The position numbers were made by a program, and so were the translations under genes. Under the pieces are notes generated by a model. That model had not been told where the DNA came from. It ran no database searches and worked only from the letters and a program-made list of their open reading frames with translations. Positions 17,078 through 53,192 of a DNA stretch of 64,000 nucleotides are shown here, piece after piece (the first letter of the stretch is position 1; every line of letters starts with the position of its first letter). The stretch lies in assembly GCF_058153355.1 (NCBI RefSeq), contig NZ_CM177019.1. The stretch is one strand, 5' to 3'.

Positions 17078-17119
17078 GTGGGTGTTGTGTTTAGGACCGG
17101 GGAGAGTCGGGGTAAGACT

Positions 17120-17300
17120 ACGAAAGCCCGCTCTCCTGCGACCACTTTTATCATAGGAGTGTGGAAGCGCTTTTCCATCAATTGCGATGACGTCTTTATC
17201 ATTTGATGAATGGCAATCTCGCATCCAGTTAATAAAGCATTCGTGAAATTATACTGAACGGATACAAGACATAACTCTAATTATGGTGCCGTGAACAGGA
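17120..17300 (-). mobile_element. ISAs1-family (H-repeat) transposase fragment; positional equivalent of the K-12 yafF remnant
   Basis: Translation ...[29 protein letters not shown]... matches the conserved core of H-repeat-associated proteins; about 150 bp are also similar to 19060-19240. Confidence 0.5.
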
Positions 17301-17348
17301 TTACCATTTTCAAAATTACGATATTATTTGCAGTAATTATGTTATTAA

Positions 17349-17861
17349 TCATTGTGATATTTCCATCTCTGTGATTAATACCGGATAAGCATTTAATTGC
17401 AGAGTTTGCACGAAATTATCGCAGATAACTGGCAATAACAATAACCCATCAGCCCGCTGCTGTAATACCTCCATTCGTTCTACTGATTCAACATTAACAA
17501 CCAAACCAAGGGCATTTAGCGATTTAAGGATCTCCAGATGTTCACTCATCCAGCGCAGAGAAAAAGGATCATCACCAATTATAAAAACAGGCCCCCAGCC
17601 GGTTAATAACTGGCGTTTCATTACGGAACCAGGATGAAGTCGAGTACATATTACAGGAAATACCCCCTGTTGCGATGGTTCCAATGATGTGGATAATTCA
17701 GAAATATTTTCCATTGTTAGTGAAGAATTAACATCCATTAATAATGGTGAAACAACCTCACTTTCCTTGCTAGTAATGGCTGCACTAATCTGAGAGGAAA
17801 ATAACAATATTATTACGTATAAACTCATTTTTAACATAACAAATTCAATCCGTTTATTCAT
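17349..17861 (-). CDS. Hypothetical exported/membrane-anchored protein (N-terminal hydrophobic segment)
   Basis: 170 aa, AT-rich, no recognisable domain; lies where K-12 carries yafU, between the H-repeat remnants. Confidence 0.35.
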   Translation of the reverse strand: MNKRIEFVMLKMSLYVIILLFSSQISAAITSKESEVVSPLLMDVNSSLTMENISELSTSLEPSQQGVFPVICTRLHPGSVMKRQLLTGWGPVFIIGDDPFSLRWMSEHLEILKSLNALGLVVNVESVERMEVLQQRADGLLLLPVICDNFVQTLQLNAYPVLITEMEISQ

Positions 17862-17927
17862 GTTATAGAATAATGATGCTATAAATCATCATTAATGTTC
17901 AATTATTTAATCACACAGTTTAAAAAA

Positions 17928-18431
17928 TCATTGACCAATGTGAATTGGCAATGTACCACTCAAGTTAAAATCACTGAATATTTTATCAATTTCTCTTGCA
18001 GTTTCTATATATTTAACCTCTTTCGTACTTGCATTATAAATAGCCCAAGCCTCGGGATGGGATGTTCCACCAAACCTTACAAAAAAACTTGATTTCATAT
18101 TATTATATAAATTAACATCAGGAAAAGGATCTTCTCCAAAATTAGTAGTATTGAATAATGAAAGTTCGTATCGCTTAGAAAATTCTGTTGGTAGGATAGC
18201 TTCACTGCCATCAATAGCATTCATCCAGAGTTTGTTACCATTATATTCCAACAATAATCTCTGTTTTGCATGTGTCTTATCTCGTTCTTTAACGACAGCG
18301 AATACCTTTTTAACAACTTGCTGTGCGGATGGTCCTATTGTATTACCAAAAGCTGGCAACCCGATTTTGCCATAAACACTCTCCTGAATAAAATAAATAT
18401 CCGTTTTATCGGCCTCGACAATATCTACCAT
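17928..18431 (-). CDS. Hypothetical cytoplasmic protein
   Basis: 167 aa, AT-rich, no recognisable motif; lies where K-12 carries ykfM. Confidence 0.35.
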   Translation of the reverse strand: MVDIVEADKTDIYFIQESVYGKIGLPAFGNTIGPSAQQVVKKVFAVVKERDKTHAKQRLLLEYNGNKLWMNAIDGSEAILPTEFSKRYELSLFNTTNFGEDPFPDVNLYNNMKSSFFVRFGGTSHPEAWAIYNASTKEVKYIETAREIDKIFSDFNLSGTLPIHIGQ

Positions 18432-49878: not shown

Positions 49879-51237
49879 ATGAGCAACAACGCACCGACAC
49901 AAACTATCGTTACCGGCAGCGATCCGCGTACCCTGCCGGAGTTCAGCGCCATCCGCGAAGAAATTAACAAAGCTAACCACCCGTCACAGCCGGAGCTGAA
50001 CTGGAAACTAGTGGAATCGCTGGCGCTGTCAATTTTTAAGGCCAACGGGGTGGATTTGCATACCGCCACCTACTATACGCTGGCACGTACACGTAATCAG
50101 GGACTGGCAGGGTTCTGTGAAGGCGCGGAACTGCTAGCTGCGATGATCACCCACGAATGGGATAAATTCTGGCCGCAAAGTGGCCCGGCGAGGACTGAGA
50201 TGCTGGACTGGTTCAACACCCGCACCGGGAATATCCTGCGCCAGCAGGTTTCCTTTTCCGAAAATGATCTTTCGTTGCTCTACCGCACGGAACGGGCTTT
50301 GCAGCTTATCTGCGACAAACTCCAGCAGGTGGAACTGAAGCGCCAACCGCGCGTGGAAAATCTGCTTTATTTTGTGCAGAACACACGCAAGCGGTTTGAG
50401 CCGCAGCCCAGAAACCGTACTGCTACGGCGGCACAGACCATGGTCAGAACGCTGGTCTATGCGCCTGAAGGCACGGCTTCCGCCACAGCGGAAACCATGC
50501 CCCCCCTACCCGACCTGCCGGAAATGCGGGTGGAGGTGCGCGGAGTGGCAGATAACGCCGACAAAGCAAAACAGGGCGACACGGTAAAAGGTTTTGTTGC
50601 CGGTGCCGCCTGTACTGCCGTTATCGCTGCTGCACTCTGGTGGTGGCAGACGTACCCGATGCAGCGGCAGCTTACAAAGGTCAGGGATACCACACAGGGA
50701 GCAGCCACCGTCTGGCTGGCATCACCGGTACTGAAAGAATATGAACAGAACCTGCAACAGCTTCTGAATACCCCACCGCTACAGCCGCTGGAAACCGGAA
50801 TGCAGATGATGCGCACCGCAGACACCCTCTGGCCGGAAAGCCTGCAACAGCAGGAAGCCAGCCGGATGTGGAGCACCACGCTGAGAAACCGGGCGCAAGC
50901 CAGTCCACAGATGAAGGGCTGGCAACAGGCGCGGCAGAATTTGCGGGATTTTGCGGATCTGATGATGAAAAAGGAGACGGAGAAACAGGGTTTCACCCTC
51001 TCGTATATCAAAACTGTGACCTGGCAGGCCGAACGGTTACTGAATCAGGAAACTCCACTGGAGTACATGCTGACGCAGTACCAGGAGACCCGCACGCAGA
51101 ATCAGGACACACAGGCGCTAGCAAAAGAGATCAACCAACGGCTGGATGGGCTGTTAAGCCGCTGGCTGTTGCTGAAAAATACCGGACAGGATATGGCAAC
51201 GGACAACAGCACCGTGCCAGTCCCTCCGACTCATTGA
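49879..51237 (+). CDS. VasL-like T6SS accessory protein (ImpA_N domain, predicted TM segment)
   Basis: 453 aa from MSNNAPTQ...; ImpA-N-like N-terminus; position after tssM as vasL. Confidence 0.55.
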   Translation: MSNNAPTQTIVTGSDPRTLPEFSAIREEINKANHPSQPELNWKLVESLALSIFKANGVDLHTATYYTLARTRNQGLAGFCEGAELLAAMITHEWDKFWPQSGPARTEMLDWFNTRTGNILRQQVSFSENDLSLLYRTERALQLICDKLQQVELKRQPRVENLLYFVQNTRKRFEPQPRNRTATAAQTMVRTLVYAPEGTASATAETMPPLPDLPEMRVEVRGVADNADKAKQGDTVKGFVAGAACTAVIAAALWWWQTYPMQRQLTKVRDTTQGAATVWLASPVLKEYEQNLQQLLNTPPLQPLETGMQMMRTADTLWPESLQQQEASRMWSTTLRNRAQASPQMKGWQQARQNLRDFADLMMKKETEKQGFTLSYIKTVTWQAERLLNQETPLEYMLTQYQETRTQNQDTQALAKEINQRLDGLLSRWLLLKNTGQDMATDNSTVPVPPTH

Positions 51238-51254
51238 GTTTAAGGAGAATAACA

Positions 51255-51734
51255 ATGGCAAATCCCGTCTATCTGACACTGAACGGAGAACTTCAGGGGC
51301 TGATTTCATCCGGATGCTCGTCAATGCCGTCCATCGGTAACAAAGCCCAGATTGCACATCAGGATCAGATCATGGTGACGTCACTGTCCCATGGTCTGAG
51401 CCGGGCGCAGAATGTCAACCACCAGGAGCTGACCATCACGAAACCGGTGGACAAATCTTCCCCCCTGCTGGGCAAGGCCATTTCGGAGAATGAATGTCTG
51501 ACCTGTGATTTTGTATTCTATCGCACCAACCGCTTTGGTGTTAATGAACCGTACTACAAGGTGAAACTGACTAACGCCCGGATCTCAAACATCGGCCTTA
51601 CCGTTCCCCATACCATTAACGACAGCCCAGGACAGCCGGAAGAGTCTGTGTCATTTACCTATGAGAGTATCAACTGGGAGCACAGCGTCGCCGGAACCAG
51701 TGCGTACAGCCTTTGGAGTGAACGGATTTTCTAA
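51255..51734 (+). CDS. hcp: Hcp-family protein (second, divergent hcp)
   Basis: 159 aa from MANPVYLTLNGELQGLISSG...; Hcp-like pattern (KPVDKSSPLL, FTYESINWEH); RBS aaggaga 7 nt upstream. Confidence 0.75.
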   Translation: MANPVYLTLNGELQGLISSGCSSMPSIGNKAQIAHQDQIMVTSLSHGLSRAQNVNHQELTITKPVDKSSPLLGKAISENECLTCDFVFYRTNRFGVNEPYYKVKLTNARISNIGLTVPHTINDSPGQPEESVSFTYESINWEHSVAGTSAYSLWSERIF

Positions 51735-52076
51735 GTTACCTGGGAGTTTTTCATCTGCATTATTGTTATATTTTAAAAAGGCAATTTAACATTATAAAAT
51801 AAAATGACAAAGTACGGTTAATCACGAATAAAAATTCTTAATTAACCGTACCTGCTGTTTTATAGATGTGTATGAGGTATTTTTGACAGTTCAACCGAAA
51901 ACTCGAACTACAGCTTATATGTTGAGAGAACAATAAATAACTTTAGTAAAGTTTTTTACTACTCCTAAAAAAAATATATATGTAAAATTAATTAGCAGAC
52001 TTGAACCAGAGTATAAATAGAAAAGAAAATGCTCTTTCTTGCTAAGTACCATTAAAACGACTTGTATAAAACCTTA

Positions 52077-52862
52077 CTACTGATAGCGATTCACCAGATC
52101 TTTAACCACTGCTGCGTACGTTTTCTGCTTAAGTTGTGAAATCTGCTGTTCTGCCACATCAAGGCTGTCAGAATTTTTATTCCCTATCTGCGGAAAAATC
52201 ACTTTCGATTCATAATTCACAGGCGACCAGGTAGCCCACTCACCTGTAGCCACATCCACCAGCGTGAATCGAACCAAATAACGCAGTGACATCGTGTCAG
52301 TCAATTTTTGATTTTTATAATCTGACCAAACTATTGATTTCAATCCAGAGTCATATTTTCCTGTCTGCAACGTATCCTGGAAAACAATAATCGCTTTCTG
52401 ATGGCCTTTTGCCGCAACAAAACGTAATGCCTGCATCCAGTTCATATTTTCGGCATCTACAACATCCAGACTTTCATCTTTGTTTTTGTCTTTATTACAA
52501 GTTACAGGTTTTTGCCTGTCAGGAATGCCAGAAAATGTGGCAACTGTATAATATTTTCTCATCTCCTCCTGCATAATGGTTTCCGGTGCGCGACTGCCAG
52601 ACTGAACAAGTATAACGGGAGAATTAAGAGGCACACGAAACTCATCTCCTTCAAGCGCAGCTTGAATATCCTCCTCGGATACAGCCAGTGTGGTTTCATT
52701 ACCATATAAATCTTTGTCTGTTAGTTGCTGGGGAACGTTTTTATTAATAGAACTTTGTGCGGTTTGAGTTTTTTTCTTTTTTTCATCAATAGGAGATTCA
52801 GAGGCACATCCTGCAAGCAGCGAGAATAATACACATATACAACAAACCCTTCTTAAATTCAT
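52077..52862 (-). CDS. yafT: Lipoprotein YafT
   Basis: 261 aa with lipobox LLAGC; adjacent to aspV as in K-12. Confidence 0.7.
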
Positions 52863-53192
52863 AATCGGACACTCCCTCGCCTGTCATAATCATGGTAATG
52901 TTTAGCTAACGATTTTTAATTATATACTCCACTTGAATCAGAACAAACAAAAATAACAGCAAATATAAATTCATTAAATCAATAGAAAAATGAAAATCAT
53001 AACATGCAAATATATTTAAATTGAATGATTCGATAGTATGATTAAATATTAATGATATGGTCTACCATATGTGATTAACACATTTACAGCATAACAAAAT
53101 CATAGACCGAAGAAATAGCGGGATTTAAATGCAAAAAACCGCAAAATTAAAAATCTTGCGGTTCTCTGAACCTCATTTTCATGAGGTGAATT

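Follow-up and report, generated by a model that had tools for sequence, protein, structure and literature searches.

A decayed, most probably non-functional copy of the APEC-O1-type type VI secretion island at aspV in Escherichia, and K-12 remnants that appear to stem from its sister variant

The chromosomal type VI secretion system island of Escherichia coli known as T6SS-2 occurs in two variants, ECC-1470 and APEC-O1 (avian pathogenic E. coli O1), which are mutually exclusive at a shared tRNA-Asp (PMC8715443). The latter is represented by pathogenicity island (PAI) I of LF82, which measures 35,070 bp, lies at AspV, carries two tssD and two tssA genes and is common to 536, UTI89, APEC O1 and S88 (PMC2941450). 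Genes Ec042-0210-0226 of enteroaggregative E. coli (EAEC) 042 likewise lie at aspV and are >95% identical to UTI89 and APEC O1, and EDL933 has a 37 kb counterpart (PMC5363993). Here, an island of this kind is described from a stretch of 64,000 nucleotides (NCBI RefSeq assembly GCF_058153355.1, contig NZ_CM177019.1), the whole of which is referred to as the window. The evidence makes it highly probable that the island is a decayed, most probably non-functional copy of the APEC-O1-type T6SS-2 island at aspV, and that the remnants found at the same place in K-12 come from its sister variant.

The window is a segment of an Escherichia chromosome, inverted relative to K-12, in which the order from left to right is fadE, ivy, yafV, a 36.1 kb insert, aspV, dnaQ, rnhA, yafS, gloB and mltD. 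The original prediction, made from the letters alone, had placed a T6SS island of ~35 kb in the interval between yafV and aspV, and had held that K-12 keeps only remnants there. Both points stand, since the interval measures 36.1 kb in the window and 2.4 kb in K-12, where it contains yafF, yafU, ykfM and yafT. Its landmarks are as follows.

16,307-17,077: yafV, the left flank of the insert
17,110-53,192: the insert (T6SS island), 36.1 kb, between yafV and the tRNA-Asp gene aspV
53,193-53,269, minus strand: tRNA-Asp gene aspV, its 3' end facing the island

The insert is the published chromosomal T6SS-2 island in its APEC-O1/UTI89 variant, situated at the 3' end of aspV, and is as such already known. 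Over 24 kb its core is 95% identical to UTI89 at the nucleotide level, as against ~82% for the other aspV variant (NDM3 or enterohaemorrhagic E. coli (EHEC) type), and the same variant is carried by 548 of 5,426 complete E. coli genomes at a threshold of at least 80% coverage of the 24 kb query. The site is that of the APEC-O1 variant in LF82 (PAI I), UTI89, APEC O1, S88, 536 and EAEC 042, where the island is ~35 kb in size. The backbone, which UTI89 and MFDS1019527 share gene for gene, runs as in this variant from an ISEc1 fragment through the gene of an integrating conjugative element (ICE), a gene for a 167-aa protein, an ISEc1 pseudogene, cargo, vgrG, hcp, tssB to vasL and a further hcp to yafT. 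Relative to the APEC-O1 variant, the window has a frameshift in tssM, a vgrG shorter by 25 codons, a frameshifted effector gene, and an extra group II intron and IS21 element. Its cargo also differs: whereas UTI89 has PAAR/DUF2169 and MFDS1019527 has Tle1/DUF3304/DUF4123, the window has an M23/endolysin effector and a pair of genes for proteins of 306 and 200 aa.

The ECC-1470 variant, as found in NDM3, EHEC EDL933 (OI-7) and ST410-A (ST, sequence type), shares with the window the site, the gene order, an ISEc1 by yafV and yafT by aspV. Unlike the window, it has a Rhs effector behind vgrG, and a 304-aa gene and ykfM between hcp2 and yafT, neither of which is present here. The nearest of the 5,426 complete genomes show 97.7-98.4% identity in both flanks and island, which points to a divergent lineage; the closest is MFDS1019527, at 98.1-98.4%. 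Closer still is the draft assembly GCA_015332025.1 (contig AAXEGZ010000046.1), at 99.96-100% identity to the window.

Genes of the secretion system were identified with NCBIfam models at their curated cut-offs and, for vasL, through Pfam VasL/ImpA_N. Every T6SS gene exceeded its NCBIfam cut-off except vasL and the C-terminal fragment of tssM. The genes, together with yafT, are listed below; the basis of the assignment is NCBIfam unless another is given.

28,682-30,718, minus strand: vgrG (tssI), 678 aa (TIGR03361, 536 bits)
30,935-31,453, minus strand: hcp1 (tssD)
32,155-32,658, plus strand: tssB
32,681-34,165, plus strand: tssC
34,170-34,595, plus strand: tssE
34,601-36,442, plus strand: tssF
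36,406-37,455, plus strand: tssG
37,472-38,752, plus strand: tagH, an FHA-domain protein
38,749-39,273, plus strand: tssJ
39,276-40,622, plus strand: tssK
40,645-41,400, plus strand: tssL (DotU)
41,410-44,142, plus strand: tssH (clpV)
44,139-44,882, plus strand: vasI
44,887-46,329, plus strand: tssA
46,439-49,868, plus strand: tssM pseudogene, frameshifted as described below
49,879-51,237, plus strand: vasL, a second ImpA_N protein (Pfam VasL/ImpA_N)
51,255-51,734, plus strand: hcp2
52,077-52,862, minus strand: yafT lipoprotein gene (Pfam YafT), 82% amino-acid identity to K-12 yafT

In such a system, TssJ, TssL and TssM form a complex that spans the envelope, and TssE, TssF, TssG and TssK form the baseplate. 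An Hcp tube with VgrG at its tip is surrounded by the TssB/C sheath, which contracts and is then recycled by ClpV; TssA and VasL serve in the priming and capping of assembly, and TagH exerts phospho-dependent control. Neighbouring bacteria are injected with toxins whose genes lie behind vgrG, the producer being guarded by periplasmic immunity proteins.

The plus-strand operon reads tssB-C-E-F-G-tagH-J-K-L-H-vasI-A-M-vasL-hcp, from which hcp1 and vgrG diverge. A core of 13 genes from tssB to vasL had been predicted: all 13 Tss core functions (tssA-M) are indeed present, counting hcp and vgrG, but the operon has 15 genes, and its tssM is split. The organisation is that of T6SS-2, with two hcp genes, two ImpA_N proteins (tssA and vasL), the FHA protein tagH, and vasI. 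The predicted likeness to the vas cluster of Vibrio cholerae was also confirmed, by comparison of family assignments rather than by sequence alignment. In that organism, the order is vipA, vipB, tssE, vasA, tssG, an FHA gene, tssJ, tssK, vasF, clpV, vasH, VCA0118, VCA0119, vasK and VCA0121 (PMC3166118, Table 1), in which VCA0118 corresponds to vasI, VCA0119 to tssA and VCA0121 to vasL. The window has the order of VCA0107-VCA0121 minus vasH. The absence of this gene, likewise foreseen, is borne out by the lack of any sigma-54 activator among the open reading frames (ORFs) of the island; as the stop of tssH (44,142) overlaps the start of vasI (44,139), there is no room for it. In contrast to the large V. 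cholerae cluster (VCA0107-VCA0123), the window has hcp2 downstream in place of VCA0122 and vgrG-3, and its divergent hcp and vgrG sit upstream.

On the dnaQ side the window is 96-100% identical to K-12, and this figure falls to 70-90% precisely at the aspV 3' end. Position 53,192 is therefore a true island boundary, and yafT lies on the variable, island side of it. At the yafV side, homology to K-12 continues to 17,136 and takes in the terminal bases of ISEc1, and the junction of ISEc1 with the yafV flank is identical in K-12, UTI89, NDM3 and the window. The GC content is 55-60% in the T6SS core, 32-45% in the cargo and ~51% in the flanks.

The original prediction had seen neither an integrase nor a tRNA-derived repeat at the distal boundary, and ORF scans and repeat searches agree with it. 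No integrase was found among the scanned ORFs of the window or in the annotated islands of UTI89, MFDS1019527 and NDM3, and the island holds no copy of the tRNA 3' end when up to 6 mismatches per 30 nt are allowed. Queries of 16-32 nt taken from the 3' end of the tRNA, at no more than 20% mismatch, together with blastn-short of the aspV-proximal 400 bp, gave only chance matches of 11-13 nt, and no tRNA-derived repeat was found in UTI89, MFDS1019527 or NDM3 either.

These results bear on the question as to whether the island is an integrative element that targeted a tRNA gene, acquired site-specifically at aspV, with subsequent loss of its integrase and distal repeat. Of the properties of an integrase-type tRNA island, adjacency to the tRNA 3' end, with its sharp step in identity, and an atypical GC content are both seen here. 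In other E. coli genomes, homology to the window stops precisely at the tRNA end of aspV, the remnant of an ICE-family gene is present, and Salmonella is reported to have a T6SS island at aspV as well. Yet a tyrosine integrase by the tRNA and a distal direct repeat of its 3' end are missing from the window and from all three compared islands, and the distal end is instead an ISEc1 insertion by yafV that is common to both variants. Such a beginning is thus rather unlikely, and since it addresses origin only, it would be compatible with the identification of the island as a decayed APEC-O1-type copy. Having neither integrase nor att repeats, the island would be an old resident of the aspV hotspot, one that is now exchanged or lost by homologous or illegitimate recombination.

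The secretion genes of this copy have been damaged in several places. In tssM, a deletion of 8 bp after 49,261, at codon ~941 of 1,145, shifts the reading frame and leaves the IcmF_C domain, kept whole, in a separate ORF of 208 aa. Relative to MFDS1019527, this is the only indel within a T6SS gene from 29,858 (in vgrG) to aspV. The possibility of an assembly error was considered and rejected, as two further datasets share the junction, namely SRR28786219 and GCA_015332025.1 (100% identical to the window over 13.4 kb), making three with the window. The deletion is absent from all 27 complete E. coli genomes with a match to the 100-nt stretch concerned. Since it is found in two other datasets and in none of these genomes, it is a real, lineage-specific mutation. 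In addition, vgrG has lost 25 conserved codons in frame from its N-terminal part (~29,860), and the gene of the VgrG-linked cell-wall effector is frameshifted.

The C-terminal domain of EAEC TssM (residues 931-1129) is the part that binds TssJ. Loss of tssM abolishes the T6SS, and its interruption has been taken as inactivating in ST131. An intact TssM with its C-terminal TssJ-binding domain, as expected of a functional T6SS, is not encoded here. Together, the lesions in tssM, vgrG and the effector gene most probably leave the T6SS of this lineage non-functional.

Several observations weigh against this conclusion. Apart from tssM, vgrG and the effector gene, all T6SS genes are intact, and the remaining indels relative to the nearest genome are intergenic, which would imply either that the decay is recent or that parts of the system are still in use. 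The detached 208-aa ORF, with its whole IcmF_C domain, could in principle be translated, though it has no export signal, and a vgrG elsewhere in the genome could replace the damaged copy, the window covering one segment only. The system might accordingly still work, either because two polypeptides reconstitute TssM or because another tssM or vgrG compensates. Such a rescue is improbable, however: the frameshift is common to three datasets, the detached domain would have to reach the periplasm to bind TssJ yet has neither a signal peptide nor a membrane anchor, an interrupted tssM is regarded as inactivating in ST131, and vgrG and the effector are damaged too. The reading of a probably non-functional system also has parallels, as the E. 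coli T6SS has likewise been lost through tssM or by large deletion in ST131-C (ISEc12 in tssM) and ST410-B (deletions), and the K-12 deletion described below is of the same kind. The lesion in the window differs from these in being an 8-bp deletion with no insertion sequence (IS), and in belonging to a different lineage.

The original prediction had further held that the K-12 remnants are homologous, in place, to genes of the window, the two small ORFs near yafV being the counterparts of yafU and ykfM. This is correct for yafT, which is homologous in the two (82% amino-acid identity), and for yafF, which agrees with the ISEc1 fragment of the window (fragment A, below) both in its IS end and in the flank towards yafV. 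K-12 yafF and fragment A are different deletion derivatives of one IS insertion. It was considered that yafF might not be the positional counterpart of fragment A, as blast had matched it to a second ISEc1 copy (copy B, 18,602-18,877), and this was rejected on the ground that the junctions are identical. For the other two of the four remnants, the predicted homology fails, an outcome that the prediction itself had listed as refuting it; the small ORFs are like yafU and ykfM in position alone. Neither K-12 protein, YafU or YkfM, found any match in the window by tblastn, even at E=10, and one of the small ORFs encodes an ICE protein of the PFL_4695 family instead.

The source of yafU and ykfM emerges from NDM3, which carries an intact island of the ECC-1470 type. 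There, a full ISEc1 lies next to yafV, and at the opposite, aspV-proximal end hcp2 is separated from yafT by ykfM and by the 304-aa gene, whose 3' end survives in K-12 as yafU. The search for deletion endpoints relative to K-12, which had been proposed as a check, gave a single junction. For 402 bp, up to a point in the ISEc1 transposase gene, NDM3 and the K-12 interval are 100% identical; the match resumes at 99.9% within the 304-aa gene, with an overlap of 5 bp at the junction. Because the match is 100% and 99.9% on either side of one junction, the K-12 remnant appears to be a derivative of the ECC-1470/NDM3-type sister island, and not of the island in the window, by a single deletion of ~31.3 kb. 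The loss would have extended from ISEc1 into the gene whose relic is yafU. That yafF, yafU, ykfM and yafT are instead in-place vestiges of the window's own island is scarcely credible: the positional order is alike, and yafT and the ISEc1/yafV junction are truly common, but the window lacks homologs of yafU and ykfM, which sit at the opposite island end in NDM3, identity between K-12 and the window is no higher than 70-90% around yafT, and for yafU and ykfM the tblastn result, the location in NDM3 and the deletion junction refute it outright.

In NDM3 itself, the 304-aa gene and the gene of YkfM, a multi-pass membrane protein, follow hcp2 (19,443-20,846 of the NDM3 stretch) and may form an Hcp-linked effector-immunity pair.

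At the yafV side of the island the contents come in the order that had been predicted, namely an H-repeat fragment, two small ORFs, mobile elements, cargo and the T6SS core. The first three of these groups comprise the following.

17,110-17,325, minus strand: fragment A of ISEc1 (ISAs1 family, H-repeat), abutting the yafV flank, the counterpart of K-12 yafF
17,349-17,861, minus strand: PFL_4695-family integrating-conjugative-element protein, 162-170 aa (TIGR03765, 121 bits against a cut-off of 59.75)
17,928-18,431, minus strand: conserved hypothetical protein, 167 aa, kept in UTI89 and MFDS1019527
18,591-23,589, minus strand: copy B of ISEc1, a pseudogene with an internal deletion of ~312 bp
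19,553-23,574, minus strand: group II intron, 1,891 bp without IS21 (Rfam D1-D4 93 bits, domain V/VI 63 bits)
19,684-21,105: ltrA reverse transcriptase/maturase ORF in the group II intron (TIGR04416, 427 bits)
21,094-23,224, minus strand: IS21-family element within the intron, with istA at 21,951-23,123 and istB at 21,154-21,954

Fragment A retains the terminal ~27 bp and 197 internal bp of ISEc1. The PFL_4695-family gene is also present in UTI89 and MFDS1019527, and the 167-aa protein has no match in NCBIfam, PADLOC or PHROGs. The elements are nested three deep, IS21 lying in the group II intron and the intron in ISEc1 (18,591-23,589). The intron splits copy B 15 bp from its end, the last 15 bp being 23,575-23,589, and the IS21 insertion point was set, with a 4-bp overlap, by comparison with MFDS1019527. 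Homology to that genome had at first seemed to break at the 5' end of the intron; this was rejected, the break lying 15 bp further on, at the end of ISEc1. The variable end of the island has gathered mobile DNA, with two copies of ISEc1, an intron that homed into the end of one, and an IS21 that entered the intron.

Two further observations concern this junction. A 31-nt stretch over the 5' end of the intron and the adjoining ISEc1 end recurs, together with an intron-type reverse transcriptase gene, in a T6SS cargo contig of Salmonella. In MFDS1019527, the terminal sequence of ISEc1 is present twice in tandem at the junction of intron and cargo (8,795-8,830 of the compared stretch), which hints at repeated rearrangement mediated by IS ends at the cassette boundary.

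Homology with both MFDS1019527 and UTI89 ends at the ISEc1 end (23,589) and resumes in vgrG. By this comparison, the block between the two is a swappable, strain-variable effector cassette, with the following contents.

23,590-28,681: low-GC cargo region
23,590-23,899, minus strand: 5' fragment of csf1 (cas8-like, type IV-A3 CRISPR), ~100 codons, cut at the ISEc1 end
24,047-24,649, minus strand: 200-aa protein, its N-terminus reading as a signal peptide, a candidate immunity protein for the 306-aa protein
24,646-25,566, minus strand: 306-aa orphan protein, predicted by fold to join an Ig-like N-domain to a SleB-like C-domain, a candidate peptidoglycan-targeting effector
25,764-26,414, minus strand: 216-aa protein with a hydrophobic N-terminus, a candidate immunity protein for the M23/endolysin effector
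26,383-28,615, minus strand: pseudogene of the VgrG-linked cell-wall effector, with an M23-like N-domain and an endolysin-like C-domain

The csf1 fragment matches PADLOC Csf1_2_IVA3 (E 9e-30) at profile positions 2-84 of 267 and is 58% identical in amino acids to csf1 of Klebsiella conjugative plasmids. Nothing of the rest of a type IV-A3 system (cas6, dinG, csf2, csf3 or an array) was found in the cargo. Further contigs of E. coli and Salmonella also have part of this fragment beside the 306/200-aa pair.

In the effector pseudogene, a frameshift at 27,384-27,419 gives ORFs of 433 and 341 aa, residues 1-393 being in frame -1 and 402-729 in frame -2. Its domain detections are weak (Peptidase_M23, 2.7e-6; PHROG endolysin, 1.6e-8), and its homologs are proteins of 700-750 aa from Enterobacter and Pantoea designated "M23 peptidase / predicted chitinase". 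Pfam gave only a marginal M23 match on an intact homolog, and a PDB sequence search with a full-length homolog found nothing. The gene for the 216-aa protein lies directly downstream and is conserved in related contigs. By domain content only, the effector may be likened to TseP, the chimeric amidase-lysozyme effector of Aeromonas dhakensis, which is also a two-domain cell-wall toxin encoded behind vgrG, with an M23-like Zn fold in the N-domain and a lysozyme- or endolysin-like C-domain; the copy in the window, however, is frameshifted. TseG of Pantoea was considered as a relative and rejected, as the TseG paper describes an unrelated effector.

The genes for the 306- and 200-aa proteins remain paired in E. 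coli and Salmonella contigs, and have very few relatives. The 200-, 216- and 306-aa proteins matched nothing in NCBIfam, PADLOC or PHROGs, and Pfam was also empty for the 306-aa protein. Tentatively, and with a chance well short of even, the pair may represent an undescribed T6SS effector-immunity family, comprising a cell-wall hydrolase of Ig-like and SleB-like domains and a neutralising periplasmic partner, that forms an orphan cassette in the arrays downstream of vgrG in E. coli and Salmonella and has homologs in Xenorhabdus.

Outside the island, positions 1-8,300 hold an intact-looking Flag-2 (lateral flagella) block with fliF, fliE, a sigma-54 activator, fliM/N, fliPQR, flhB and flhA, which in K-12 is reduced to the remnants lfhA and lafU. 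Between flhA and yafL, at ~8,385-9,010, lies a hicAB toxin-antitoxin pair; K-12-like E. coli have rayT in this interval according to the NDM3 annotation. In 61,414-64,000, a second tRNA-Asp gene, aspU, ends the rrnH operon; it has the same sequence as aspV, which explains a duplicate tRNA-Asp match.

Earlier publications describe the island and its two variants, which exclude each other, and report that K-12 lacks it. What the present analysis adds is the origin of the K-12 remnants and the decay of this copy. K-12 yafU and ykfM would be relics of the sister variant, the endpoints of the deletion being mapped to within 5 bp. The lesions in the window provide a further instance of the recurrent loss of T6SS that has been reported for E. 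coli, and screens based on gene presence would call this strain T6SS-positive, though it probably is not.

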